From Raillietiella orientalis (Eukaryota), in the NCBI GenBank assembly GCA_036172245.1, contig JAYWIR010000009.1, positions 1,426,001-1,490,000 on the forward strand: a stretch of 64,000 nucleotides of DNA, read 5' to 3'. The notes beneath the pieces were generated by a model, which ran no database searches, was not told the origin of the DNA, and saw only the letters and a list, made by a program, of their open reading frames with translations. This document shows, piece by piece, positions 11,154 to 56,000 of the stretch (position 1 is its first letter; each line of letters starts with the position of its first letter). The position numbers and the translations under genes were made by a program.

Positions 11154-14100
11154 ATGTATAAAAGTTTCTTTCTATATGCGGTGATCGAAAACCTAATTAT
11201 TAACCCCGAAGATTTTACTGTTCATGCCAGTATTAATGCAGCACCGGAATTTTTACCAAGTGGAGACCTATCAAAGTTCACGCTTAAAGAAGATACTTTG
11301 GTCAATTCTGTAGTATATCACTTAAAGGGAATTGATCCCGAAAATTCTTCTGTAACTTATAGCATTGACAGTGATTTTTTGAGAGTTGATAAAAACACTG
11401 GTGTTGTTTACCTATCAAAAGTATTAGATAGAGAAAAAATATCAAAAATATTTGTTACAATCAGTATCTCAGGTACTAAATTTGCACTTCATAACGGCTA
11501 ATGGTTGCTAGCAACTTTGTAGTGGCTCATTTCATTTGTCATGAACAGGAACATTTCCCTATTGTTATTTTTTATGATTATTTTGGGATTTTAATCTTGA
11601 TTCAAATAAGTGCTTTCATCAAAGTAACCATATTTTTGTTTATATCTATTCGTAAATTGAATTTATTGTATTATTACTTCAAAACTTGTTGCATCGAAAC
11701 ATGATGTCTGTTTTCAAATCAATGAAATTAAGCCCCAATACTTCAATAATAATGATTCATAGATTTATGTGCGCATTTTTGTATGTGTTTCTATAGAAGA
11801 AAGCAAGAGAAAGTTAAATCGTCAAATATCTGTTTAAGAATATTAAGAGATCATCATTTCTATTTTCTGTTTTCCAGATGAAAGCTTTGATGAAAATGAA
11901 CCCAACAAAGTATCCCTGAAAAGAGAAATTCAAATTTTGGATGTTAATGATAATGCTCCAAGATTTCTAGATGCTCCATTTGCATTCTCTGTCCTGGAAA
12001 ATGCTACTGTTGGCAGCATTTTATTCAATGGAATTTGGGTTCAAGATGTTGATAGTGGACAGAATGCAAATGTTGACTTTGAGTGTCTACCAGATTTGGT
12101 ATGTAAAGACATTTATGTGTTAAAATATCATAGGCACACAAGTAGTTCTACATTGAGTTCAGTTTGAAATTTCATCGTGTTCTGGGTTTCTTTCCTTCAA
12201 ACCCTAAACACTGATTTTCATTTAAATTCAAGAATTTCTTTCTTATATTACTGTTTACAAATTTTTACTTTGAGCTTTTTATGCTTTTATAGTTTTCATG
12301 CGTGATTTCTTATATTTCTTGACAATTTTTTCATATGTATCACAAGTTATTGTTCTGAGATCTTGTATAATCTAGAAATGTACTGTAATGCACAGCTAAC
12401 TTATCTGTTTCCACAACACTTAGAATTTAATCTTATATGCATTGGTTTGATTGTAACATCTCACAGTTGAAAACAGAAAATTACAGTAAGAAGTTATAGT
12501 GTGGGAGAAGCTAACAATTTATTGTTGAAATCTAACAAAAAATATTTTGGGTGAATCTTGCTGCATTCAGTAATTTTTATAATTTCAAGTTTTTCTTAAC
12601 GAAATTCAGTAAATAAAAAGAATGTATGCATCCTGACGTTATTGCATTAACATGTTTTGATTCCTAATCTATGGTTCAAATTAAATTTCCAGGATGAATT
12701 TGCCTGCCAAACATTTCAAATACAAAGAATTCAAGTTGCTGATGGTTCATTTCAAGGACTTATTATTCTCCAAGATCAACTTGATTTCGAAATTCGCTCC
12801 TTTTATATTCTCAAGATCCGTGCTCATGATAAAGGATTTCGTACCCAGCTGTCCAGTATTGTTCATGTTGCTATCAGTGTCATTGATGTACAAGATCAGT
12901 CACCTGCATTCTTATTCACTCCTTATATTGCCATAATACCAGAAAATGGACCACCTGTAAGTGATGTTTTGTATGCAGTCAAGCATTATTAATGCTTATT
13001 GTCAGGGGCATCTTGTCTTAGAAGTGTCTGCTAGGGATCAGGATGGTGGGAAGCCAAACAAACTCAACTTTCAGATTCATGGTGATGAGAAAAAGCATTT
13101 TAAACTGAGTGATGTTGTTCATGACAACAGTGGAATTAGCAGAGTACACGTACTTGCTAGTAATCACTCATTAGATGCAGACCAAAGAGATTTGATCCTT
13201 AATGGTGGTATATACGTATTTCAACTGGAGGTAAGATGACAACCATGAAACTGTATTGCATCATAAGCTACTAGGCTAGGGAGACAGGTGGCTCCTCTAA
13301 TGAATTTGTAAGAACCAATATAAGTGTCATTATACAAGATCAGGATGACCAAATACCTTTCTTCATTCCTAAGAAAACTAATATAACACTTCCAGAAAAT
13401 ATAAGTGAGATTTTTAGTAACACAAAGATTTTATAAAAACTAATGCATTTGTTGCTTTGTATAGAATCTGGTGAATATGTTCCGGATTTTTGGTTGTGGG
13501 CAACTGATTCAGATTATGGCGAGAATGCTAGGTTCAATCTTTCTTTGAGTAGTGATGTCAGTGGAATATTCAATGTTCATCCGAATTCTTGCCAGCATTT
13601 TTGTTCATTCGCTCTTGAAATAACAAATTCATCTTTACTAGAAAAAATGCGGCATATAAACTTTAATGTTCTGGCCCACAGTGTATCTCATCCTCCTGTT
13701 GATACTAAAGTCCAAATCACTGTGACACCTCCTTCTGATGCCTTGTCTCTGTTTCTACACTCTGAATACAGGTACGAGAATTTGTTCACTTCAGAGTCAT
13801 TTTTGTTTCAGATTTGAGGTGCCAGAAAATGTATCACCTGGCTGGATAGTTGGTGATTTGCTTCTAGTGGACGATGTTCTCTTTCCACTTCACTACAATT
13901 TAACAGGCTTTGGAGTTGATCAATTTAAAATTAATGCTACTTCATCTCAACTTTACGTAGCTAATTGTGGAGTGGTATCCTGCTTGAATTTTGAAGCTGA
14001 GCAAAATTATTTGATGCTCTTGTCTGCCGAAGATACTTCAGGCAAGCAGGGCAGAGTAGTAATTTGGGTTGATGTGCAAGATATCAATGATGTCGCTCCT

Positions 14101-17100
14101 GTATTCTCAGAGAATATTTATAGACGTGTTGTTCGCAGTGGAGAAGATCGCTTAGTACCTCCCCTTGTTATACAGGTTTTGAACTTGCTCTGCTGGACTG
14201 TAATTCTTTTGTAGGCTGAAGATGCTGATGCTTCGCAGCAAGTAATTTTGTACAAAATTCTTACAGGAAACACTCAAGACAAATTATTCAGCTTGAACTC
14301 ATCTTCTGGAGTGCTTACTTTAACAAGACCTGTCAGTTACACAGATACTTCAGTGGGAAAGTATCACTTGGTGGTAGCAGCTGAAGATTCAGGGGAGCCT
14401 CCACTAACAAGCACAGCAGAAGTAGTGATTGCCATTGATGTTGAAAATAATGAAAGACCAGTGTTTCTTAATGAACCTTACATGATTAGCCTTCCAGAAA
14501 ATTCCACACCTGGTACATCTGTCGTGCAAGTTAAGGCTAATGATCCTGATGGATCAGATGATGAACTTACTTATGAGATTGTTAGTGGTGATGAGGATCA
14601 GTTTTCTATTAATCCTCATAATGGTCTCATATTGGTGGCGTCAGAAGCAGATTTGGATATTCAGATTCGAGGGGAAAATTATACATTGATCATAAGAGTC
14701 ACAGATGCTGGATTTCCATTTCATCAAATGAGTTTCACAAAAGTTGAAATACTAATCACTGATGTGAATAATAAGTTTCCATATTTTGAGCATCCTTTCT
14801 ATGCTGTACTAGTAATGGAGTCAACAGAAATCGGAGAAGAAGTGACTTCAGTTAAAGCACATGATTTTGATAAGAATGCAAAATTGCAGTATGGCATTGT
14901 CTCTCCAGTAATCACAAGGAGTATCCATTGGCTTGTTCTTTCTTCAGACGAGCAGTCATCAGATTTCTGGTAAGCTTCTTTCATTTTGATTTTCTTGTTT
15001 TCTTTTTGAAGCTAAATCAAATAGGATTTCAATTTAGTCCACATTTTGCATGGTGATAATGAGCTGACTTTAATGTGATGTTTGCTTTTTAAACATGCAC
15101 ATCTGAATGCTTATTTTTTGCATTCGTTGATGCTTTTAGTAATTGAGTAATTATTTCACACAGCTTGTATGGTCAGTGAGTAAATGTGTCTAAAAAAAAT
15201 TGCATTGTGATCAGTTTTGTCTGAATTTATCCGTTTGAGTGTTTTGTTTGTGCTTTTCTGTATCGAACTGCATCTATTACCTGTCTCGGTTTACACTCCA
15301 TTTCACCTGAATAAGAATAGATTATGAAGCATTTGCATTTTGATTATCCTCTATGTTATCAAATTTCCTGAATTCCATAAATTTTAATCAAAAATTTTGT
15401 TAAAAAGCTGAAGTATCTACTTGAGTGCAGTGGGATTTTCAATCCATCTATAATTGACAGAATGATTTTCTATTCACAGTGGATGGAGAATCATTCTGCT
15501 TATTTATCAAGAAAAATCGTTATTTTTCTTGATAAATAAGCAAGGTGAGAGCCAATAATACAGAAAAAGTCTCTAAATGAAATTTTAAGGACCAAAAATG
15601 GAAATTCTGAGCCCTAGGTAGTACTTGCAACTTATTGATGAAATGAAACTTTTGCTTTGAATTATTAATCAAAAAAACTTTATGCTAAGTACTCAGTAAA
15701 TATAGATAATGATCATAAATTTGGTTTCGATGATGGTTAAAAACTTGGAAAATGCACTTTCATACTTCACCAAGTGCATCTAAATTTTAAATCCATTTTG
15801 TTGAAGTTTAAAAATTTTTAAATTATGAGAAATCCTAATACACTCTTATACGTATCTCAAACTTTTGAATTGTGAGTTTTATGGAGGATGAATTACATTT
15901 GAGAATGTTATGAGAAAATAGTAATGAAGATTGGGTGGTAACTGCGAAAGCATGGAAGATTCCTTGCTAATGTTTTGGGATAGTTTTTTTTACAAACTTT
16001 ATTGAATTGTTTGAAAATATCATGAAGAATGGATACAGCTATTCAAGTTCTTTAACAACCTTGATGATGTTGAAGGTGATCCTACAGTTCAGACTAAAAC
16101 GTATTTGTTATGAAAGTGTGTGTGAATTCTGTGCTGGTAGTGTGAAACCATTGGCATGTTGGAAAGTGAAAGCATATGTTTTCTATCTGTATTGAAAGAA
16201 TCATTTGAAATAACTGGCTGTTTTGCAGGGAAATTCTCAGGATCTTTGATTTTTATTTGCACAAGCAATCTAGTTGCAAAAGAGTTTTCAAGCAAAGGAA
16301 AATATTGTTATATCGCGATAGATCTTGGAATTTTGATTTGTAATTTCTGATATATTCTAAAGTTTGGATTCCATGGATATAGCATATGTGACATTAAAGG
16401 GCTCCAGTTCTCCCCAAACTGGAAGCTTCGTTTGTGCATCAGCAGAAAGTTTTCTGATTGAAATAAAACTGCTTTTGGAGCACTTATATCAAGTCTGACT
16501 TGCGTTAAATTCATATGAAATTTTAATAAATGGGCTTCACATTCCAAAAAGGGTGAGGTTATGAAATTCTAAATGAAAAAACTTTTGCAATCAAGTTGAC
16601 AAAAATTCCAGAGGATCCCAAGCATCACTTTGCCACTGGGAAACTGAGCAATTAAAGAAAAAAGTGGTAGCTAAGATTGCAATTATTGGATCAATTTTTC
16701 ATCGAGATATCAAAAAAGGATTTGAGAAAAGCAGTCAATGTAGTGATTTCTGAAAGCGATGAAAGGCGCTGTCAAAAAATCAGTTTTCTCGATTTTTTAC
16801 TTCGAACAATGTTTTTTTTTATGAAAAAGGAATTAACAGAGGAGAAGTATTCCAAAGTTAGTTTTGATGAAAGGTAGAAAACATAATAGTACAGATTTAG
16901 ACGTATTTCTTAGCCTGTTTCCGGGATTGTAAAGGAACTCGTGTCGAGATGATGATTCCAGCTTTTCCCCATTTTGAAAGTTCTATTGCACTCATCGATC
17001 AGATAATGAGAATGCAGCACATTTTGTACAATTACTGTACTTGGAATCCTCTGTGTAGCGACTTTAAAATTTTTTAATGATTAATTTCCATGTTTACGAT

Positions 17101-20100
17101 CATCTTTTTTCAAACAGTGGCCTGATCTTGGTATGTTTCTGCATGGGACTTGAGAAATAATTCTTAAGGAAAGGATTTTAGTTTTCTCCAGACCTTACAA
17201 TTAGGACAGCACGTAAGGTAATTTGAATAAATTGTGGCCGAACAGCTTAGGACGGTTTCATTCTTTCATTCACAGCATTCGAAAATCTATTATCATAATG
17301 CGAATGGTCTGCCCTTGACACGATGAGGTTCCCTCCTTTTGAACAGAGTATTTTGATTGGTACCAAAAGTACCATGGGGTTTTCATATACGTTAGGGTTT
17401 TTCATTGAGGTTCATAAAAAAAAAAAAAAAAAAGTACAGCGATACAGAAAGAGATAAATGATAAATTGAAGTTGATGCGATCATCATCATCTTTATTATC
17501 AGAAAATGCTTGGAATTGTGATATGCTTTGTCAACAGTCATCACAGATTGAAAGCCAGCGTTTTTTGTATCGCAACTGATACTGTAGGCATCGTAAGAAA
17601 TGTAAAACATTTTTGTAATTCGGTCATCAATTTGGTTAAGCATACTCCGGATCTTTTATTATTGCCTTTACTTGAAAGTAATAAAAAAACTTTCCAGCAT
17701 AAATCCTGAAACTGGATTGATTACAGTTTGTGGGCTGCTGCATCGAGGAAAAGTTGCCGTCTATGAATTAAATATTGAAGCCATCGATGTTAATGGAGAC
17801 ATTTCAACTCGTCCTCAAGTTGCTTTTAGTAAGTTAGTCATCAAATAGCTTCCCCTTTTAATGTTCTCCACAGCAAAATTGTTGATTACCGTAACTGTTC
17901 AGCCAGAAAATTTGCCTATATTTGCATTGCCATGGTCTCCTTCTAGTCCAGTTTTGAATGTTTCCATTAAAGAGGACTTGCCCGTAGGGCATAAAGTGAT
18001 TAAATTAACTGCTGTAGAATCAGTCTCTCAGCAAGCCATACATTGGTTTGAGAAACTGACTGCTTCAGATCCACGTAACATGTTTATTGTAAATCAGATC
18101 ACAGGAGATGTAGTGTTAAACCAACAGTTGGACTTTGAGAAGCAGGATGAGCCAGTAGGAATACGCTTTCTCTTATAGTTTCGTGCACTTTGTCTGCTTG
18201 ACAGTTGTCCATAGTTGTAAAAGCTATGTCCAGTGGATTGTCAAGTTCAGCAACCATCAGCATTCATTTAACAGATGTCAATGATAATGCACCAGTATTT
18301 GAGCATCAGGTAGGATGGATACTGTTGCTATGTTTGTAGTTCTTGGCAGGAATACTCTGTTGAAGTGGATGAATCGTGGAATCAGCCTGATGTGTTCTTC
18401 ACAGCCAATGCCACTGATAAAGATAAGTCACGAGAATACAGATCCATCCAATTCTCTTTAATTGGAGAAGACAGTGATATGTTTATAATAAATTCAAAAA
18501 GTGGTGATATTCAGCTAGCTCCAGGTGCTCATTTTGATAGAGAAATACGCAGCAATTACAGTCTGTTGCTTGTTGCATCTGATTGCCCATATGAGCCATG
18601 GTCACGGCTTTCTTCGACAGCACAGGTAAAAAATGCTGGCAAACTTTTCATCTTTCATCATTTTCATCTTTCCAAAGCTCTTGGTGATAGTCAGAGATGA
18701 TAATGATAATTTTCCGATTTTCTCTCAAACACACTATGTGGCTGTTACACCTGAATCAGCTTCAGTTGGCACCTTAGTGATTCAAGTGCATGCTTACGAT
18801 GCTGATGAAGGTGCAAATGGACAACTAGAATATAGCTGGAGTGGGCCCATGGCTTTGCTGGGTATGAAGATTATCGTTTCTAATGTTATTCTGATACCAA
18901 AACAGACTTGTTGATGATGGATATGCAGAGTGGTATGTTGAAAGTGATCAAGTCTTTGTCTGGAAGAGGTCGCCAACAGCCTTATGTCCTCACAGTTACT
19001 GCTACAGATTTGGGCTGGCCTTTTCATTCCAGTGAAGTTCAGCTGATGCTTTACATTTCCGATTTGTTACTCAATGATGGGAAGCCTATTATTGAGAAGC
19101 CTGCCCAAGGGACCATTGCGATGATTACAGAGGTCAGTGTTAGATATTGGTTTCATTGGTTACCTCTTGCAGAATGTCCAAGCAGGGACACATGTCATGC
19201 AAGTAATTGCTTCTGACCCTGATGATCCCCAAACTCAAGAGGGTCACATCACTTACAGTTTGATTGGTGACTTAAATGCAACTGCGAATTTCGTTTTGGA
19301 TCCAGCAACAGGCTGGATTAGCACTAAAGGCCCTTTGGATCGTGAAGCTCAGAATAGTTATGAAGTGACACTGGTTGTCTCAGATCAAGGCAATCCTCCC
19401 CAGTTCAGCACCAGGAGCTTACAGATCTTTGTTGAGGATATTGATGATAATAAGCCTATGTTCTTATCTACTATAATACAAAACCCACCGGTTTTCTTTA
19501 TCAGGGAAGCAAATGCCATTGGGCAGATAGTGGGGGAGTTAAGTGCACATGATCCTGATGCACCTGAGAATGCTCAGATTGATTTTGCTATTACAGGTGA
19601 GTTCTGTTATTGAAAGTGCAATGTAGTTCTTATGGAAAGGAGGCGAATGCGGGTTACATGATTGTGTCTTCAGATGGTAATGGAACAAAATTCTTTGATG
19701 TGAACCGCACAGTGGATAGTCGAGCTGTGCTATATGCTATTACCAGCTTAGATAAAGAAATAGGAGATAGCTATCAACTTCATGTTGTCTGCTTTCCCTT
19801 GGGAATGAAGACGGCAGCCTTTGATTTTCCTCCACACAGTAAAACTGTTGTTACGGTTCATGTTATTGATATTGATGATAATGAGTTGCAGTTCGTTCAT
19901 GGGAGCCTAGATTTGGGTAAAATTGCATAATGTCGATATCATAGATGACTCTGTCGATCGTTAGCTGTATACTCCGGCACCCCAGTGGGCACCATAATTG
20001 GACAGGTGCAGACTGCAGACCATGATGTTGATGCTTTGTCACCTTCCTTTGAATTAGTAAAACAGACATTGACAGGTAGTGAGAGGCAGACAGGTCCCTT

Positions 20101-33093: not shown

Positions 33094-36000
33094 GGCTTGG
33101 CAACGGGATACGCGGGGGTTCAAGCCGGGAGGAGGACCGTGGATCCCACACCGTTCCTCCAAGCTTGCAGATCGCCAGCTTCTGGTCGCCGGTGCGAAGG
33201 TGTGTGTGAGTGTGTGTGTGTGTGTGTAGGAGGAAGAGGAAGAGAAAGAGAAAGCGCGAGACAGACAGATGGTCGGGGTGGATGGGAGATGGAATCGACT
33301 CTGCCTTTTTTTTTTTTTTTCTTTTTTTTTGCGCGCGCGCGCGAACATTGCTGAGTGAGGTGGGAAAGACAGGCAACAGCAAGGAAGAACAAGCATTCGT
33401 CGGATGGTACCTTCATATGGCTTTTCTTTTTTCCTTTTCTTTTTCTTGGTCGCCAGACCGTAAGCATCTCTGGCGTTCCAGTTGGGGTACAACTGCATGT
33501 GAATCTGCCTTTCTTTTCGGGCTTTGTCATAGTACACAGCCTGCTCTTCCTTCGACAGAGCGTGCCACTGGCGGATAAGTCACGTGAGTTGCACAAGCCA
33601 CGTGGTGTGGAGGAGAGTTCGCAAAGCACCCCGACGGCGTCGCAAGGGGGGAGGCGGGGAAGAGGAGGAAAAGACGCAGGAGGGGGAAGTAAGGGTGGGG
33701 GCAGCGAAGGAAAGGGTCCCTCTGCAGGAGGGCCGAGGAAGGAACGGAGGCACAAGGGGATGGAGGGCGAGGAAGCTGCAGATCGGCTCGAGGAGCGTGG
33801 CGGCGACAGGGAGGACGACGGATATAGGATGGACGGAAAGAGAGAGCAGGCCGCCGCCACGCCCACCGGGGCACCGGCAGGGAGCCAAGGGAGGCTGCGG
33901 TGCGGGACGACGGGGAAGAGCAAGCCCCTCCCTCGCATCTGCTGCCAGATCGCCTTGCGCCACGGGTTTCCCCGCGGACAGGAAAGAGAGAGAGACCGGG
34001 CAGATCGCCTGGAAACTGCGTGAGACCTCCCGAGCGGTTTCCAGGCGATCCTTTCTTCCTCCTCCTCCTCCTCCTCGTTTTCTTCTTGTTTCTTCGAGGA
34101 AAGCGAAGGAGAGGAGGAAACATTCGTGATAGCAGCGCGGCATGGTTGGCGTGGAAACCGGAGCGAGCGACGCTCCGGCTTTCAAGTTCTGGGTGGCAAC
34201 GAGGAACCATTGGTGAGGGTCGCGCGAGCGGACCCTTACGCGCTGTGCGCACGCGGCGAGTTTCCCGGGAGACACTGGTAAGGAGGAAAGGGGGTCGGAA
34301 AGGGGGTGCACGGAGGGGGAGGAGGGAGGAACAAACGCGCGCGCGCTCGCGCGCGCGCGGGAGAGCAGCAGCTTGCCACGGGTGTCGAGCGGGGGACCAA
34401 GGAAGACTCACCCGCCTTCCAAGGATCTGGTTGATGGCGGCAGACTCCTTCAGCGTGCACTCGGCGACCACTTTGGCCCGCATCTCTTTCATGTACAGCA
34501 TGAAGGCATTCAGGGGCTTCTTGATGTGCGGCTTCTTCTTTTCCTCGGCCGCGTGGCTGCCGGCCACCTGGCCGGCGGCGGCGGCCTCCTTCTTCAAGAC
34601 CGGGCTCTGACTGCTACTCGAAGGCTTCTGCCCCATGCACTGCCTTGGGGAAAGGGGGAGGGGAGAAGGGGAGGGAGGGAGGGTCAGCTGGGAGTTGGAC
34701 GGGCGGGGCCAGTGCGCGCTACCTGCTGCCTTCCTCGTACTTCATCCCGGACGACGAGTGGGAGATGCCCGACGTCAGCAGCCCCGAGTGTCCTGAGAGG
34801 GGGTGGTGGGACGAACCAGTCACCAGCCCTGGGCTGAACTTTCCTGCTAGGCTGTTGGGTATTGGAATGGAATTCGAGTAGGGACTAGGTCGGAAGGGCG
34901 AGGAGGCCGAGTAGACGGCGGAGGGATGCCTGCGGGAAAGACACGCCCAGCCTTTGCCTTCCCGTCCCGGGGTCGCCACGAACGGCGCCGCTCCCGTCCG
35001 CCGTCCTCAGCGCCTCAGCCCCTCCCGGACGTTCCGGGAGGAAAGCGAGCGGAACAAAAGGAGGCAGCGTCGGGAGGCGCGGGAGACGCAGCTGTCGGGA
35101 GTCGAGGAGGAGCTTACCATGGAGGAACCGGTGAGAAGTCCGGCGTCATCATGGGATGGTACTGGGCAGGACCGAAGTGATACATGTGAGGCCTGCCTAT
35201 TCCTGGACAACAGGAAGGGGAGAAGGGGAAGAGAGAAAAAAAAAAAAAAAAAACATGGAGTCAGCATTCGCCAAGCAGGCAGACGAGCGCCGCCTGCCGC
35301 GCGCAGTCTTCGCCTCCGTCCCGCGCTCCTCGGTTCGATGCGCGTGGGGTGGGAGCACCGTCCTCCTGTCCGGGCCCCCCGCGCGCGACGGCGGGAAAAC
35401 GGCGTCTCCCCGATCCCTTCCTTCCCTCGCCCCTGCCTCTCCCTCATCCCTGGCGAGCGTCCGGGATGAGGGATCGCCCGTGCGCGACGGCTCTGCGAGC
35501 GAGCGAGGCCATCGCGCCGCGCCTTCTTTTCCCACGTGGACGGTCGATCGCCGATGCTGCTGCTGCTGCTGCTGCGGTCATTCGTCTCTTCAGAAAGGCG
35601 GGGAGAAAAGAGGAAAGCAGAAATGAGAGGGGAACGGGGCAAAGGGTGAACAACTCCAGGGAAGACGACAGGGTGCGAGGCGGACCAACGGAATTCGCGA
35701 ACGGGCAGGGTGGGGTGAGGCGTAGGAAAGAAAGAAAGAAAAGAAGAGATAAAAAAAAAAATAGGAAAGTAGGAGGAAGGCGCGCCCGCCGATAAGCATT
35801 GGGCAGCCAAAAAAACAAAAAAAAAAGAAAAGAAAAGAAGGAAAACGGCGGTCCTGAAGATGGAGAAGGCTTTCGCGGAGTTGCGAATGCGAGAGACGCG
35901 CCGTTGGTCCGTTCCTTTCTCCGTGTTTCCAAGCAAAAGGGGAGAAGAGAGGAAAGGAATATCCTGTTTCGCGAGCACTCCAGGCTCCCTCATGTGCGCC

Positions 36001-47700: not shown

Positions 47701-49607
47701 CCTCTCCTCTCCGGAAAGTGCGGACCTCCGCGTGACCCAGGAAACGACCGTCGCAACCTGCCGTCGGCGCGACGATCGCGGACCTCCGGGGCAAAATCAG
47801 CCTCATTGCCGCGGGCGGGCTTGCGATTCCTTCTCCGCTGCCCTCAATCGCGCCCCTTTTCTTCCTTCCCCCGCCTCGTTGAGGCAGATGGGAAGGGTTG
47901 CCGGGGGAAGAGTGGCAGTTGTCGCCGCAAGGGGCAAGCAAGGGAGACGCTTAGGGGTCACCCCGTGAGCTGGCGCCTCCGACTTCCACCGTCGCCTTCA
48001 AGGGAGGGGAGGGTTGCTGCGAGCTCAGCAGGGATTCCGGACGTTCCCTTTCCCGTGGGGCGCGCAGTTCTCTGGGGGGCGATTGGGTGCCACAATCAGG
48101 CAAATTCCTCCTCCTCCCCCCCCCCCCAAGATGGGAGCGGAAAGAGGGGCGGATGACCCCCACGGCGGCCTGCGCTAGCATAGGCACGTGTGGCGGGACC
48201 AGTGGGCGAGCACGTGCGAGCATGACCTGAAAACCCACGCCGCTGCCGCCCACGCGGCGGTGGTGGAAGGAGGGAGTGCTCGGGAAGAGGGGGGGGGGGG
48301 GGGGAGCAGTGCGAAACAGGAGGTCAGGAGGGAGGAGCGAACGAGGTGGCCGTTCCACGTGCCTCCTGCCACGGCGCCGTCCTTCGCCCACGCGAGCTGC
48401 CAACCTTTCGCTGGCGAAGGGCACTGCGCCTGTCGGCGACGGCGGCGGAGGCGCCGCGCACAAAGTGCGCAGGGGACGCGCCTTCCTCCCTCGGCGGCGG
48501 CCCGCGGCACTGTGCGTGCACGAGCGCCTCTCCTGCCACGCGGTGGGAAGATGGGGGGAAGGGGGCACATATGGCGAGGGCCTGATACGGGGCGCCATGT
48601 CGATCCTTTCCCTCCCTCCCTTGAAAGGAGGGAGTTGCGAGCGGACGCGCTCGGCCACGACCACGGGATGAAAGGGGTATTCACTGTCTTGATCGGGGGC
48701 GGGGGAGGGGGACGAATACTTCCTCGGCACCTGCGCGGGCGCCGAGCATCTCCGGAAGAGAGGATGGAGAAGGCGAGTCGAGCACGCGCGGTGGAGCCCG
48801 CCCGCACGCGCCTTCCCACCCCCTTTCCCTCCTGGCCCCCCCCCGTCCCTCCTTCCTTCCCTTGCGTTCCTTCGGATGAGAGAGGGAAGCGGCGCGGAGG
48901 AAGCCTTCGTCCACCCAACCACTCGCGCGCCCTCGGGACGAACAAGGAGCTCACCGAATAGAGTTGCGTGGTCGAATCGGAATCCTTCCTTGGCACCGAA
49001 GGGGTGGCTGGGGACGTGCGTGCTGCGATCCTGAAACGGGAAAACAGGCATTAGGAGGGCGGCACTTCACACGGCCCTCCCCCTTGGGGACCCTCCGAAG
49101 GAAGTCTGAAGGGCAAGGAGGGCAGGCGGGGGAGCAGCAAGGGCGTTTCTCGAACCCTTCGGGTGGAGGAGCAGGAGGGAGAGAAAAAGAGACGGGTGCG
49201 TGGTGGCGGTGAGGGGACAAGCCCCGGGGCAGCGTGCACTAGGGAGGAGGAGGGGGGGGGGAGACGTTTCCACGCACGGCTCCCCCCAGTCCTCGCGGGG
49301 AGGAGCGACGGGAGCACGAGGGGGCGGGGGAGGTCGACCTGCAGGGTAAGCGGGAAGGAGAGATGGCAGGCAAGGCAAGCAGAGAGAAGGGGGTGGGGTG
49401 GGGTGGAAGGGGGGGGCGTTGGGGCAGGGCCGGGGTGCAGTACGGCTTCACCTCCTCGGACTGGGTGATGAGGCTGTTCTTGTCCTCGATGAAGCTCTTC
49501 TCGGACGTGATCTTCTCCTCTTCACCTTCGCCCTCTTCCTTGTACACTTTCACCTCGTCGCTGGGACCGAGGTCGTCCGCGCGGCCGCCGCCGTTCACGT
49601 GCGGCAT
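27615..49607 (-). CDS. pan: TCF/LEF family HMG-box transcription factor (pangolin/TCF7L ortholog) with C-clamp, ~592-593 aa
   Basis: Exons on the minus strand, all GT-AG and phase-consistent: 49452-49607 ([27 protein letters not shown], beta-catenin-binding domain), 48955-49030, 46602-46696 ([14 protein letters not shown]), 40337-40484 ([16 protein letters not shown]), 35118-35202, 34723-34929, 34412-34643 ([42 protein letters not shown]), either 33411-33567 or 32711-32870, 31594-31663 ([19 protein letters not shown]), 27615-28167 (RRKKKCVRF...[22 protein letters not shown] stop). An in-frame TGA at 49644-49646 upstream supports the ATG at 49607. Confidence 0.96.
32123..32185. repeat. Imperfect (CA)n/(CG) microsatellite in the TCF intron after exon 8b
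   Basis: cgcacacgcacacgcgcacacacacacacacacgcac... Confidence 0.9.
32711..32870 (-). CDS. pan: TCF alternative exon 8b (paralogous HMG-box C-terminal half + basic tail)
   Basis: ttctag|TGG...GGA G|gtagt with a CTAAC branch-point motif at 32897-32901; 160 nt, phase 0 to 1; encodes [53 protein letters not shown]. Confidence 0.92.
33200..33227. repeat. (TG)n microsatellite between TCF exons 8a and 8b
   Basis: gtgtgtgtgagtgtgtgtgtgtgtgtgt. Confidence 0.9.
33411..33567 (-). CDS. pan: TCF alternative exon 8a (HMG-box C-terminal half + basic tail)
   Basis: ccag|TGG...GAA G|gtacc; 157 nt, phase 0 to 1; encodes [52 protein letters not shown]. Confidence 0.92.
39762..39777 (+). promoter_or_regulatory. 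Candidate bipartite TCF site (Helper + HMG site), in TCF intron 4
   Basis: GCCGCCG immediately followed by CCTTTGATG. Confidence 0.4.
40777..40805 (+). promoter_or_regulatory. Candidate Wnt response element: two tandem TCF HMG sites + Helper site, in TCF intron 3
   Basis: CCTTTGAAG (40777-40785), CCTTTGATC (40788-40796), GCCGCCA (40799-40805). Confidence 0.55.
44323..44352. repeat. (GCC)n trinucleotide repeat in TCF intron 3
   Basis: about 9 tandem GCC units. Confidence 0.9.
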
Positions 49608-49814
49608 CCCGGCACCCTTTCCGTCGCAGGGGACGCCGGCAACTCAGGAGAGAGGAGGGTTGGCCGCCGCAACCAAGGCGACGGCAAGCAGGGCGGGGAG
49701 AGAGACGGAGCGGAGGAGAGGAACGGGTTGCGGACGAAGAGGAGGAGGAGGGGGGAGGAGGAGGAGGACGAGGAGAAGCACGAGGAGGAGGAGAAGGAGG
49801 AGATGCTGCGGTAG

Positions 49815-49852
49815 CTGCTGCTGCTGCTGCTGCTGCGGCGGCGGCGGCGGCA

Positions 49853-49899
<47 letters not shown>
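49815..49899. repeat. Compound trinucleotide repeat (CTG)7 + (CGG)~21 upstream of the TCF start codon
   Basis: Directly visible; one CAG interruption in the CGG part. Confidence 0.95.
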
Positions 49900-50044
49900 A
49901 CTGATCTGCGCTGCTCACGGCCGAAACCCGGCGCAGAGACACACTGGAACCATCCTCCGCCTGAGCGCTACTGAAGGCTGCCGCGGCTCTGCGCGCCGAG
50001 GAGACGGCCGCCCGCCGCCGCCGCGAGACGGGGGAGGGAGCGGC

Positions 50045-50053: not shown

Positions 50054-52929
50054 CCACGCGAGCCGGGAAAAGCGGCGGCTCGCGAACAGAGGACGTGCGC
50101 TCGAGATGTTTTTTTTTTTTTCTCTCTCTCTCTCTCTCTCTCCCGCTCTCTCTCTCTTTTTTTTCTTTTCGTTTCTTCTTCTTCTTGTTCTTCTTCTTCT
50201 TCTTCCTCCTCCTCCTCCCTATCCCTCCCTCTCTTTCCCTCTCTCCATCTCCTTCTCTTCTCCTCCCCCTCTTGCCGCCTCCCCCCCTTCCCTCTCTTTT
50301 CCCGTTCGCGCTCGCCGCAGCCGCCGCGCGCCGGTGCTTTCCGCCTCCTCCCCCCGTTCCCGGAGCCCCTGCACCCCCACTGGAAACCGCCACCCAACCC
50401 TCTCTGCTTTTCTTTTCCTTTCCCATTCTGCAGCCGCCGCCGCTGTAAATGGAAAGCCGTATCCCGGGCAACCCCAGAGGGAGCGGCAACCAGTGTGGCC
50501 GTCGCGAAGCAGAGGGGGAGGGAAGCGGGAAGCAAGCATGGCGTAAGGGTGCTTCTCCCCTCCCCCGCGCTTTCCTCGTGCGTACCCCCCCCCCCCTTCT
50601 GATAGGCAAGGGGGGCACCTTCCGAGGGTCGACACCCGGACACCGGGTCAAGCTGAGCCGGGACGCTCTCTTTCCCGGCATCGAGGAGTAGACGAAGAAA
50701 CTTCCAAGAAGACCTTCCCGTTCCTCCCTGCCGTGGCACCCTGCAAAGGGAGCAGGGGAACGGCTGGAGGTGGGGAGGCGTCGTCCCGTTTGCCTTCCCA
50801 CCTCGTCTGCCAGCTCCAGAGCGTTCGCGAAATCCTCTGTCGTCTCTGCGGATTTTTTCTAGGGATCGTGGGGAGAGTTCCAGTCTCAGCATACCCTCGA
50901 CTCCATCCTCCTCCTTTCCCGAAGCCATCCAGTCGTCCGCTTTGTTTAAGAGAGCCGGGATGCAGCGACGCCCGCGGCATCAGCCGCGGTTCCAGAACTG
51001 GGAGGATGATTCAGGTATCTATAAAGGAAGGGAGTCCGCCCCTGCTCTTGCCACACCTTCCACAGGCCAGGGACTGCTTGAGGATGCTTCCCCCCCGAAC
51101 GGCTCATCTCCTCTCCTTCAGGGGCGCTCAAAGGCCACGCAAAGGGAACGGAACCGTGAACGAGAGGGATTTCGTCTCCATCGGCGTTTCCCCGGAAACT
51201 GCCTTCGCTGCCCGAGCGCTCTCGAGGTAGCTTCGACCATCCCCGTTTCGAAAATGCTGTTAGTCTTCGACCGCCACTGCAAGGGAGTCTGTGGATTTTT
51301 CCTGGAAGGGGGAGGGGACCTCGGTAGTCCAGGTGGGATTTTCGATTCCAGACGACCGAGTGCCGCATCCCGTTGGGCTGTACCGCCGAGTCCCAGGCCA
51401 ACGGAGCGGACGTTCCTTCCCTCCTCGTCGGGTCGTTCCTTAGAGCCTGTGGTTCTCATGGGGCGGAAATTCCAGCGCGGCGAGTCTCCCCCATCCCTAA
51501 AAGGTTCCACCTCCAAATGAGCGGTGCTCTGGAATCTCCACGGGGTCGCTATGCAGTCCCAGCTCGGAGATGAGGCAGGAGGCAATGTCCTCGTCGTCTT
51601 CGAACTTCCGCTTTCATAGCAGCCCCACGGTGCCTACGGCTGCTGCCTCCATGCCACAGCCCTTCTGTAGAGGTCATGGCGGGGACGTGGCGCCAACACC
51701 TCAAGGTCTGCCGGAAGATGCTTTTTGTCTTCGGCGTGCATCCCTCCCGAAACGACTTGAAAGTCTCTGAGGCTCTCCGCGCGCAGAGGATCCGCGCTGG
51801 ACATCGGTCGGGATGATGCCCGAGGCGAAACAAACTCCTCTTGAGGGATTCCATCCCGGCTCACAGACCGCTCCAACCCAGCACCTGGATGGAATGCCGT
51901 CCACTTTGCAAGCGACCGGAACGAGACGTCCCTGGGTACTCAGCGCCTACCCCCCACGTCCATGGGGAAGAAGATGCTCCGAAGCGTAGCAGACAACGTG
52001 TCGTGGAGTCCCGGATGCCGAGGACGTTCCTCTCACGTGGCTCATTCTTCATGAGTGACCTCAACTTCTTACACCGAGGTGTGCTGTCCTTAGTATACAG
52101 AGACCCCTGGTGGATGAGGGTCGGCTTCGAAGGGACTGCCCCCCGGAAAAAGCGAGAGGGAGTTCCTCAGCTGTAGTCTGCCGCGTAGTCCGGACGGCGG
52201 CACCCTACTACTGTCGGCGCAGAAGATCTTTTCGAAGAAGTGAGGAGGTCCCGACGACCCCCTCCTTTACTGGGGTCTGGATGGCGCTTCTTGAGCGAGG
52301 GAGCCAGGAGAAAACAGGTTTGCCAGGAGACCAACGGACGGAAGGATGACGTCTCGAGAATGTGGCGCGGAACCTTGGAAGGCGTTGCTCGCGTCTTGGG
52401 TGGCGGCAGAATGCACAGTCGCCTTCTCCTGAGGGGAAGTTTCCCGGGGTGGCAGCAGCAAGAGTGCCTTCTGCTGGGCTGTTGGTATGTTTCCTTCGGC
52501 TGCTGAGGTCCAGCTTCTTGTGGATCGGGTGAAACGGACGTTCCGAGAAGGAAATTCACAGCTGGACCGGCGCAAGTGCCTCGCCGTGGGATCGCTTCCG
52601 AGAGTCTGAAGGTGGGCGTTCAGGCGCTCCCCGAAAGAGGGTGCATTCCCGAGATGGCGTTTTGCAGTTTAGGGAAAGGCTGATCATCTGGGGAACTCTT
52701 GGTTTCTTGCCTCTTAGTCTCGAGGGATCTCACCTGCAACTTTGTGGAAGCTGATTAAGCGGGAGAAAAAAAAAAAAAAGGGGGGGAGGAGGGGAAGTCC
52801 CCATCTCTCCCTCGGATCTGTCCCCACTTCCAAGACACTGAAACGGGTGAAAGCAGCGCGGTAAGGAACTTTGTGCGGTTTCTCCTGCCATCCCATTTTT
52901 GCTGCCTTTCCAAGGTTGAAGGCAAGGAA

Positions 52930-53012
52930 GAAGGAAAAGGCTACGGTGCAGGTCAGAAGATCTCAGGCACAAAGCGCCATATCGCAGTTGATGCACAGAG
53001 TTTTTTGCCACA
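52930..53012 (+). mobile_element. Short degenerate fragment of a bacterial IS5-family (DDE) transposase, endosymbiont-like
   Basis: Translates EGKGYGAGQKISGTKRHIAVDAQSFLP, matching the IS5-family (IS1031-group) motif GYDAGKKxxGxKRHIAVDTxGLP. Flanks show no further similarity and no terminal inverted repeats were seen. Confidence 0.8.
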
Positions 53013-56000
53013 GGGAAAAAAAGAACTCGGGAACAACGAGGAAGGGGAACTGATTCGTTTTCTTAAAGAATGGCGCAGAAACAGCAGCGAAGCACTCTCC
53101 TCGGTGCAAGATTCGACCCTCAGGACGACAGACTTCTTTTTCCGCTGCCCTCTGTACAATGGCAGAAGCACCACAAAGCGCAGCGGAAAACGCACCGAGT
53201 GGGAAAAGCGCAGGCCGAGGCATTCTTCCAAATATGGCAACCACGCTCGCACCAGTCATTACTCGTGCAATCGCTGGTCCAGCTAAGTAGGAAGAATGGA
53301 GAAGAGCCAAGCTTGTTGGAATCAGTCTCGAAAAGGATGGGCTGGAGCCCCCCTTCTCTCACCCTTCTAGTGTTTCAAGGGAATGTGTTTATTCCGGTGT
53401 GCATCCAGGTGGCTTCTTCCTGGAGTAGGCTCTTCCTTTCCGGCTCTCCTCTTCTGAATGCAGAAAGACGTGCGCTCTGACGGAATCGTCGTGTCGCCGC
53501 CTTTCGAAGATCATTTTGCCTCCGCTACGGAACGCCGCAGCGAGGTACCCAAACGCTCCCGCCGATCTGCCGACGCTGGGATCGAAGTCTCCATTCAAGG
53601 TACCACAAGAAGGGAAGGGCGATTTCTCTATTCTTCTACTAGAATGGCTCGCAGGTCATCGTTGGAAGCTGCGGGAGGAGTCCGCTCCAGTTCAGAAAAA
53701 GTCGCGCTTCCGTCGGTCTCCGCCGAAGGAATTCCTCAGGAAGGAGGCAGCACTCGCCGGATGTCCTGAAAAGCATCTCGAGGATTCGGTCTTCCGGCTG
53801 ATTTCTTCCAACGAGCCTTCAAGCGAGAAGAGGAATCCTTCGATGGTCGAAGTTAGTCGGTTGCTTTTGACTTGCCCCATGCCGTGTCTCGCATAGAAGT
53901 CGCAAGGGAACAGAGTTAGTGAGCAGCCAACGTCGGACGGAACGTCGCTGCCAACTGCAGGTGCTGCTGGCCATCCTACCAGTCAGGCACGAGAGAGGTT
54001 CAGTTGAGTTTCTTGGGGGCACAGAGAGAGCCGCGAGTAACCTGTGGTGCTGATGCGGGAAGGGGGAAGGAAGGGTCCTCCGAGAAACACCACGACGACA
54101 TCAGACGGCTCCTTCTTTCAGAAGGTCTGTTCCAGATAAGGGAATGTCTCTCTCCGGAGATACGCAGCCTCCGGAGAGAGCCATCCGCTGAGTAGCCGAT
54201 ATGGCAGCGTTTGGGTGGACAAATTCCATCGGCTCTGCCGTGGAATCCGCTCGAACGCTCCCGGTTTTCGGTGTCTTTTTCTCTGAAGACGGGCGTCCTT
54301 TGGCTGTTGGATTTTCATCCCCTGGAATTCTCATTCCCCGAGGACGGGAGTCCCCCGGCTGATGCGCACTTCTGCTGAGACCAAAGGGCGAACTCGTCCA
54401 GAAGAGCAGGCAGCAGTGGAACGGAGCAAGGAGGAGGGCTAGAAGAACAGGGCCAGACTTCTTGGAGGAGCCCTCTCACAATCGGAACAGTAGGTGGGGG
54501 GGAAGGAAAGGCGGAGGAGGAAGAGGAGTGGTTCCACGCTTTTTACCATTTTCAGGAAGTTTCATGGTCCCTCAGAAACTCTCTCCCTTCCCGTCGGCGC
54601 ATCGTTTTCTGGACCATTTCCCTGCTTTCCTCGAATGGGGAAGAACACTATGGTATGTTTTTTTTTGTTGTTCCATTTGAATTCTTTGCCAGAGAGTCAA
54701 GAGAGGGAGGAGAGGAGTATTTCCAGCGTCTTTTGTGATGGAAGGAAGAAGGAATGGTAGGTAAAAGGGGGTAGGATAAGATCAAACCCGCAGAAGAAGA
54801 TGTACTGAGCGGCCCACAAGCAGATCTAGAGAACAGAAATTTGCCCAACCGAAGATCTCCCAGTACATACAAGATCGCGAAGCCCGGGCTGTTGCTGGAT
54901 CGAGAAGGAGGAAGAAGAGGCGTGGCAGTGAAGCCGGACGAGCCAGTTCTCATTCAGAGCAAGAGGAAAGGAGATATCAGCGCCTGATCTGAGAGCCAAT
55001 GACGCCGAACGGACTAGGCGAGAGAGGGAAAAAGATAGGAGGAGGAAAAAAAAGATGCAACTGGTGGCGAAGACCCTGGATTATGGAGCTCGGGATCTCT
55101 GACTTCCTCTGTGGATGCTTGCAAAACGAAGCGGCGGTTTTCAAAAGAGACAGGGGGAAGGATGGGGGGATTGGGGCAGCCGATCTGCTCCGGAATCTCT
55201 TGCCATTCCAGCTTCCATACGGGCTGCCAAGCCCGGAACTCTGAGATACCAGTCTGCTTTCCTGGTAGCTTGCGACCTCACTGGGAAGGCAAAATGAGGG
55301 GAAAGGCACATCGAGAAACCTCAACAAGCATTCCTGGAAGGCAAAGGAGGTTTCTTGTCCCCAAGAAGAATGGGAAGGAAAATGGTGGGGAGGAGCAGAG
55401 GGTGGGCATAGAGGGATGAGGTCCGAAAGGTGCGGCAAGGAGGAAGCAGATGTCCCAGAAAACCGTCTGAAGAACTCGTGCCACGCTAGTGAATAGACGA
55501 GGCTGGGGAGGAAGAGACTTGCAGCGACATCGCCCACGAAGCTGGAACGGTTTCCTTTACCACCGAAGCTGACTATGATTTGAAAAGGAAAAGGGAAGGG
55601 GAAAACCCTTTCGTTTCTTCTTTTTTTCTCCTTGGAGAACTGCTCCTTGGAAAGGTTGCCTTGGGAAGGTTTTCAGACGTGGAATTCGGAAAATGACAAA
55701 CAGGTGCCATGTCTAAGAATTCTGTTCCTCAGAGAAGGAAGAGGAGCTCCCGGAGACATCCTTCACACTCCCTCGGAATGCACCCTAAATCTGGTACCCG
55801 TACCAACGGAAACCAACGAGCTTTCCGACTGTTGCTTTCGCAGGAAAAGCTAAAGGGTTCGTGAAAGGAGAGATGAGCAACGCCCCCCTTTGCGAGAAGG
55901 CTTCCCTCAAGGACGAAGTGGACAAACCCTCAGGCAGAGGATCCGAAGAACGAACCCGCTTGCCTGCCGTCACTGAGAATGGAGATCTGTGCTTTCTCCT

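Follow-up and report, generated by a model that had tools for sequence, protein, structure and literature searches.

A candidate IS5-derived micro-fragment in non-coding animal DNA upstream of a TCF/LEF gene

Results

Genes and sequence composition of the locus

The window, meaning the whole 64-kb stretch of DNA that was analysed, contains cadherin-repeat exons at 13.7-20.8 kb on the + strand and a TCF/LEF gene at 27000-49607 on the minus strand. The TCF/LEF gene has long introns and lies in DNA of 59-69% GC, and the exons with the beta-catenin-binding-like region and the HMG box are given in Table 1. A second HMG-box exon lies near 33.4-33.6 kb, where the frame list gives a reading around the end of the box that is unusual for the family. 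Overall, the GC content ranges from 34% to 69% inside the 64 kb. The observed/expected ratio of CpG is 0.78-1.05 in 12 of the 16 4-kb bins and drops to 0.32-0.46 only across the cadherin gene body (12001-20000), which also has an excess of TpG/CpA and a GC content of 34-38%. Given the methylation patterns of invertebrates and vertebrates, such a profile resembles the mosaic methylation of gene bodies seen in invertebrates rather than a vertebrate pattern. Atlas assignments of the encoded proteins, based on few records, gave Chordata as the most frequent phylum and Rotifera for one cluster, and a cadherin search returned no match.

The GC-rich part of the window holds many long A or T runs in addition to (TC)n and (CTTCTC)n arrays. 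A (GCT)n(GGC)n triplet repeat occupies 49810-49900, approximately 200 nt upstream of the TCF start codon, and an A14 run followed by G7 and purine-rich sequence lies at 52766-52790, 150 nt upstream of the fragment described below. A search of Rfam returned no matches in the window.

An IS5 transposase-like fragment

A short stretch resembling a bacterial IS5 transposase lies in non-coding, animal-type DNA 3.3 kb upstream of the TCF/LEF start codon. This distance from TCF, and the presence of host sequence around the fragment, had been proposed in an initial annotation of the window, and both agree with our reading, in which translation of the minus-strand TCF/LEF gene begins at 49607 and the flanks are host-like and non-coding. 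The + strand from 52930 to 53012 translates as EGKGYGAGQKISGTKRHIAVDAQSFLP, and the peptide is present there as the annotation had described it. Within this stretch, 52936-53010 reads KGYGAGQKISGTKRHIAVDAQSFLP; the string quoted earlier starts at 52936 and its Leu-Pro ends at 53010. The similarity extends over approximately 52931-53013, with an nhmmer envelope of 52922-53016. It corresponds to about residues 36-60 of the OrfB of bacterial copies and ends just past the second catalytic Asp (GAT, 52990-52992).

The motif of the subgroup, G-Y-D-x-G-K-K ... K-R-H-I-x-V-D, is kept at 17 of 21 positions, with an Asp and one Lys that are invariant in 122 bacterial cores replaced. A motif altered in this way fits a decayed copy, and it also fits a chance look-alike. 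The count of 17 of 21 identities to an IS5 motif given in the initial annotation is correct, and so are the four codon differences listed there (GAT>GGT, AAG>CAG, ATA>ACA and ACA>GCA), all of them single-base steps, and the accompanying T-run. The 24-residue motif given there itself occurs letter for letter in the IS5 transposase of a Spiroplasma ixodetis plasmid (read with table 4), as well as in several metagenome copies. The T-run consists of six T (53001-53006), and the extra codon lies inside it, before Leu-Pro.

Table 1. Positions of the coding features and of the fragment with its altered codons in the window
Feature	Position	Strand	Evidence or remark
IS5-transposase-like fragment, 26 codons	52936..53013	+	translation, plasmid tblastn, blastn, PAM30 tblastn, protein HMM, nhmmer
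Gly codon GGT; Asp (GAY) in 122/122 distinct bacterial cores	52945..52947	+	single-base step from GAT
Gln codon CAG; Lys (AAR) in 122/122 distinct bacterial cores	52954..52956	+	single-base step from AAG
Thr codon ACA; Ile (ATH) in 122/122 distinct bacterial cores	52969..52971	+	single-base step from ATA
AGT TTT TTG; Gly-Leu in bacteria (Gly-to-Ser step plus one extra in-frame codon)	52999..53007	+	PAM30 alignment crosses with one gap
Stop-free frame of 175 codons holding the fragment	52759..53286	+	stop-free read
TCF/LEF first coding exon, N-terminal beta-catenin-binding-like region	49443..49607	-	start codon 49607; 3' end approximate
TCF/LEF HMG-box exon	34421-34639	-	frame read; first atlas hit a TCF7L2 cluster, 0.92

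The fragment sits in a stop-free frame of 175 codons (Table 1), for which there is no evidence of gene status. A search of NCBIfam with the 175-aa frame returned 0 families, and comparison with 1.84 billion representative proteins returned no IS5 protein at E <=0.001. Two tandem-repeat proteins matched by the frame were rejected as spurious, as these matches sum weak repeats and reach 24-28 bits in pairwise BLASTP. At 53185-53241 on the + strand (frame residues 143-161), 12 of 19 residues are identical to a unit of P0004, a tandem-repeat 'protein' of 1,630 aa and approximately 21 units. HMMER sums these units to an E-value of 9e-11, with single units at 24-26 bits. This resemblance is taken as chance, and P0004 and P0005 look like translated satellite DNA.

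Resemblance to bacterial IS5 transposases

The part of bacterial IS5 transposases (NCBIfam IS5_3 type) that the fragment resembles is the one leading up to the second catalytic Asp. In a tblastn search against plasmids, 1,258 records were returned, and among the matches listed those that are annotated are IS5-family transposases. The best protein-level match in plasmids comes from Spiroplasma ixodetis pSHM_2, where the gene is annotated as an IS5 transposase and was translated with table 4 (78.3% of 23 residues). At the DNA level, the best blastn match in 7.3 Gb of plasmids is the annotated IS5 transposase of Undibacterium pUKW01 (81.5% of 65 nt, 62 bits), next to which a copy in a Propionivibrio MAG reaches 80.6% of 62 nt and the Spiroplasma copy 76.5% of 68 nt; one plasmid blastn match is annotated ISStma16. 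When one genome per species was searched in 185,579 species, there were 384 pattern matches, 59 of them relatives. These bacterial sequences belong to the genuine IS5_3 transposases, given that the Propionivibrio copy scores 157.6 bits against NF033580, for which the cut-off is 110. The ISfinder IS1031 group label for the fragment comes from the initial annotation and is presumptive.

Elements of the NF033580 type (transpos_IS5_3), for example those of pSHM_2, pUKW01 and the Propionivibrio MAG, have two overlapping frames and approximately 0.8 kb of coding sequence. The fragment shares with these copies a stretch of 21-25 residues that keeps their order and stops at the second Asp, with 17 of 21 motif residues and 76-81.5% DNA identity over 62-68 nt. 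Unlike them, it amounts to about 9% of the coding length and is without the first-Asp region, the Glu region and OrfA. In addition, it differs from the 122 bacterial cores in three invariant residues and one added codon. Apart from the altered residues, the fragment agrees with 128 bacterial copies (mean 41.6 of 57 nt) about as well as these copies agree with one another (45.6 of 57).

Signal at the DNA level and noise at the profile level

The Undibacterium match has an E-value of 4e-7 with a 141-nt query and 3e-5 with an 8-kb query, which scales to approximately 2e-4 for 64 kb. As controls, four stretches comprising 31 kb of the same window gave listed blastn matches of at most 49 bits, which is 13 below the 62 bits of the fragment; these figures describe the matches listed (40 of 89, 8 of 9, 8 of 64, 6 of 48 and 6 of 105 records, ordered by coverage x identity), and a higher-scoring record is possible among the others. 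In the 8 kb around the fragment, the sole other 62-bit match among those listed belongs to the (GCT)n(GGC)n repeat, whose match to a bacterial cobN gene is spurious and illustrates that E-values from database searches are unreliable for repeats of this kind.

With PAM30, a matrix suited to high identity, tblastn aligned the Spiroplasma copy over 28 residues (52930-53013) at 55.4 bits and across the T-run gap. Against IS5 proteins the fragment scores 37-40 bits, and all other places in the window score at most 28.9 bits. Our own IS5 protein HMM gave 30.1 bits (E 4e-8 in a search of 2,174 six-frame pieces, runner-up 5.8 bits), and nhmmer with a DNA profile of 45 full-length copies gave 37.5 bits at 52931-53003 (E 3e-12, runner-up -1.6 bits); both of these models lean in favour of the fragment because the copies were fetched by patterns derived from the window. 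The four amino-acid mismatches are all one base from family codons, which has P ~0.006 if mismatched codons are random, and three of the four are transitions. This signal is not independent of the DNA score because single-base steps partly raise that score. As judged from these alignments, the DNA-level likeness does exceed chance, and the likeness to IS5 probably reflects homology.

In contrast, curated generic profiles fail to separate the fragment from noise. The Pfam family PF01609 (DDE_Tnp_1) scores 18.8 bits (E 0.0015) on the 27-mer and 17.6 bits (E 0.0035) on the 175-aa frame, both under the gathering score of 23, while unrelated Pfam families reach up to 17.0 bits (E 0.0073) and 15.6 bits (E 0.012) on 116 neighbouring stop-free frames at 49.5-55.7 kb. 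Similarly, the NCBIfam model NF033580 gives the fragment 11.2 bits (E 0.19) against its cut-off of 110. BLOSUM62 scores only approximately 40 bits, a value common by chance when a window is compared with a large database. A word-indexed protein search with a 42-aa stretch against longer proteins, in which the index requires several shared words, gave 7 candidates and none with E <=1. Synonymous sites add hardly anything to the comparison, at 3.6 bits with 1.6 of them owed to the choice of copies.

These results bear directly on the explanation that a 25-codon stretch of junk happens to resemble an abundant, highly conserved bacterial motif and was spotted by a motif-aware reader. Such a stretch would be expected to score at noise level with generic profiles, to carry no signal at synonymous sites, to lack flanking similarity of any kind and to have no donor above approximately 81% in the collections searched, all of which is the case here. 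The mismatches fall on residues invariant in the 122 cores, as random ones would, and BLOSUM62 matches of 40 bits are expected many times for a window compared with a large database. The same 175-aa frame, moreover, reaches its 12 of 19 identities with an unrelated repeat protein, and real IS5 pieces are very rare in animals (PMC3673617). Set against this are the DNA-level score, 13 bits above the best listed control in 31 kb and at approximately 2e-4 for 64 kb, and the 55.4 bits obtained with PAM30. A coincidence would also have to account for four mismatches that are all single-base steps and for similarity that picks up again past an in-frame gap of one codon. We consider a coincidence a serious possibility, though not a probable one. 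The assignment to the IS5 family made in the initial annotation holds in part: the stretch is most IS5-like, in the right frame and at the right position of the transposase, and the certainty of the assignment is reduced by the appreciable probability that a chance reading keeps.

Absence of the remaining element

For the rest of the element of approximately 1 kb, no other transposase segment and no further match to the element DNA profile was found in the window. The protein HMM matches at positions 30-57 of 176, and the DNA profile at positions 530-602 of 1050. In bacteria, conservation as high as that of the motif extends to its two neighbours, the first-Asp region (11 codons upstream) and the segment immediately downstream. 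Neither was found in any frame by blastn, tblastn with word size 2, the protein HMM or nhmmer, and thus the match stops where a chance match would stop too. A sharp end at the motif edges is expected of a short piece and of a coincidence alike. The fragment reaches the second Asp only and holds no complete DDE core, the first-Asp and Glu regions being missing. A weak OrfA-like match at 53298-53363 (24.3 bits) was rejected, as an OrfA remnant would be expected on the other side of the fragment and the score is at noise level.

No convincing terminal inverted repeats or target-site duplication bound an element of approximately 0.8-1 kb at this site. The sole flanking inverted repeat has 13 nt with one mismatch (92% complementary) and lies at 52560-52572 and 53272-53284, with a spacing of approximately 725 nt. 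By our own estimate this is about the chance expectation in 1.4 kb, and the repeat has no similarity to IS ends. A repeat search around the site found short pairs at chance level only. Among the matches listed, blastn detected no other bacterial DNA in the 8 kb around the fragment or in the 31 kb of other stretches, and Pfam found nothing bacterial above noise on the 116 nearby frames. The locus has the IS5 similarity, its limits are narrow, and all other parts of the element are absent. Judged by these comparisons, the fragment is not a decayed full element and would be either a truly short piece or a coincidence.

Donor and pattern of divergence

Among 186 fetched loci there is no copy closer than 81.5%, and the plasmids, the genomes of the 185,579 species, the viral contigs (7) and the metagenome contigs (at least 118) that were searched yielded no closer donor. 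The initial annotation had proposed an AT-rich endosymbiont as donor, followed by GC-biased neutral decay in the host. This proposal is a sub-case of the transfer discussed below and does not add to its probability. In its favour, the motif given in that annotation is exactly that of the Spiroplasma ixodetis plasmid IS5, the best plasmid match at the protein level, and 13 of the 15 base differences from the Spiroplasma copy run from A/T to G/C (counted from the codon rows). The CpG ratio of the locus, close to 1 and reduced only in one gene body, is also of a type common among invertebrates, which are the usual hosts of symbionts of the Wolbachia, Rickettsia, Cardinium and Spiroplasma type.

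The pattern of differences, however, fits poorly with GC-biased decay of an AT-rich copy. Neutral decay should strike all codon positions alike, whereas the differences from the Spiroplasma copy fall on 11 of 21 third positions and on 4 of 42 first and second positions (Fisher p 3.5e-4). Counting only A/T sites turned to G/C leaves differences at 9 of 19 third positions and at 4 of 23 first and second positions (p 0.049). This excess at third positions indicates divergence under selection among bacterial genes rather than neutral decay in a host. In addition, any mid-GC sequence shows 'AT to GC' differences when compared with a 25%-GC genome.

The distribution of relatives also argues against an endosymbiont. 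In the collections searched, mid-GC copies from the Betaproteobacteria, namely Undibacterium and Propionivibrio, are the best DNA matches, and Spiroplasma is best at the protein level only, and there by one residue. G or C occupies 10 of the 21 third positions of the fragment, and these mid-GC third positions, together with the best DNA matches, tell against an endosymbiont copy of very high AT content. The motif subgroup is found in many free-living lineages and in metagenomes, and the surrounding 8 kb holds no further bacterial DNA at the level of blastn. An AT-rich endosymbiont donor with GC-biased decay is accordingly unlikely. The three changed residues that are invariant in bacteria fit a loss of selection.

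Assembly artefact and eukaryotic transposon relic

Causes other than an IS5-derived piece or a coincidence are together improbable. Bacterial reads from the sample, or an IS of a cloning host, could have been built into the contig; contamination of clones by insertion sequences of the cloning host is a known phenomenon. In public reads from one low-depth run, contigs cover 52797-52910, 53048-53297 and 54015-54100 only, leaving the fragment uncovered and its junctions without a spanning contig. The piece, however, is approximately 75 nt long with host-like DNA on both sides, and an artefact would thus need two wrong joins within 90 nt. Fresh contaminant DNA would also not be expected to differ from the 122 cores in three invariant residues and an extra codon. 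Phage records gave no match, and no IS matched in 5,426 E. coli genomes, with a 41-bit hit (E 1) in 1 genome that only clips the first bases of the motif; an IS of an E. coli cloning host is excluded by this genome search. An artefact of assembly or contamination is, in our view, very unlikely.

A relic of a eukaryotic transposon related to IS5 (PIF/Harbinger, ISL2EU or similar) is the least probable of the alternatives. In animal DNA, transposase-like scraps most often stem from old transposon relics. There is also an evolutionary link between PIF/Harbinger and IS5 (PMC3673617). Against such a relic, Pfam returns DDE_Tnp_1, the bacterial IS4/IS5 type, and nothing else of this kind: in this Pfam-level comparison no Harbinger-type or plant PIF family appeared at E <=10 with the 27-mer or at E <=1 with the 175-aa frame. 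A better match to PIF/Harbinger, which the initial annotation had named as evidence that would count against its reading, was therefore absent from Pfam. Moreover, the identity of approximately 80% to bacterial copies far exceeds what those superfamilies share with IS5, no flanking transposase is left, and the frame has no homologue among the 1.84 billion representatives.

Discussion

Our analysis leans, if only slightly, towards a real but dead IS5-derived micro-fragment of approximately 70-85 nt that would come from a two-frame transposase gene of the IS5_3 type. A short piece of bacterial DNA may have entered the animal chromosome, for example by being patched into a break. The inserted piece would then have gained three or four point changes, at positions where bacterial copies do not vary, and it would also have gained a one-codon expansion of the T-run. 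What is left are only the codons that lie between the regions of the first and the second catalytic Asp, and thus the fragment encodes no transposase and has no mobility. Nothing suggests that it has a function.

The evidence for this event has to be weighed against its low prior, which follows from the rarity of bacterial IS in eukaryotes. With a DNA-level chance of approximately 1e-4 to 1e-3 per window on one side and a low prior on the other, a transferred piece and a coincidence do not separate cleanly. The prior hinges on how transfer-prone the host is, and it is the background transfer rate of the host that decides the verdict.

Reports of bacterial IS in eukaryotic genomes are few. A screen of 430 eukaryote genomes found only bacterial IS of the IS607 type (PMC3673617). 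For the bdelloid rotifer Adineta vaga, an IS5-like transposon has been described that is single copy and silent (Gladyshev and Arkhipova 2009, as cited in PMC3673617 and bioRxiv 10.1101/2021.09.26.461848). If the fragment is real, the rotifer case would share with it a silent, single-copy bacterial IS5-type sequence in an animal nuclear genome; it is, however, a described transposon, whereas the fragment here is a 75-nt scrap with the rest of the element missing.

Two further systems concern endosymbionts. ISWpi1, which is the family that the initial annotation had in mind, is an IS5-family group with two overlapping frames and is reported to be restricted to Wolbachia (PMC2515875). Any likeness of the fragment to it is presumptive, and the motif subgroup matched here, unlike ISWpi1, also occurs widely in other bacteria. 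Arthropods and nematodes are known to have nuclear insertions of DNA from endosymbionts, and some of these insertions include bacterial IS as part of larger blocks (Dunning Hotopp 2011, as cited in PMC3673617). If the transfer is real, the fragment would share with these insertions the condition of non-functional, decaying bacterial DNA in host chromosomes. Unlike the larger blocks, it has no other bacterial-like DNA detectable by blastn in the surrounding 8 kb, and an endosymbiont donor is not indicated.

If real, the fragment would be a small bacterial DNA fossil preserved within a chromosome of an animal, of a length that the usual screens would miss. Taken alone it changes little, as it is functionless, its donor is not identifiable, and it holds no record of which bacterium was involved. 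Its main value is methodological, in that a striking motif match can be profile-level noise yet clear at the DNA level. It is tempting to speculate that the fragment is a visible example of a class that escapes transfer screens, namely bacterial pieces of <100 nt patched into animal germline chromosomes, though we give this idea little credence. Equally speculative is the corollary that such pieces of <100 nt would be recognisable only where they cover an ultra-conserved motif. Should this class of micro-fragments be true, whole-genome motif scans could recover a hidden record of past intimate associations with bacteria.

A separate observation concerns the bacterial copies themselves. In two alphaproteobacterial MAGs, the chromosomes (CBDAUZ010000001.1 and OZ244899.1) both hold numerous IS5_3-type copies, comprising loci L006, L009-L013, L016-L017, L021-L024, L030, L032, L034-L035, L038, L042, L049, L053-L054, L057 and L059 of our set, and many of these copies are frameshifted or truncated when their frames are read.
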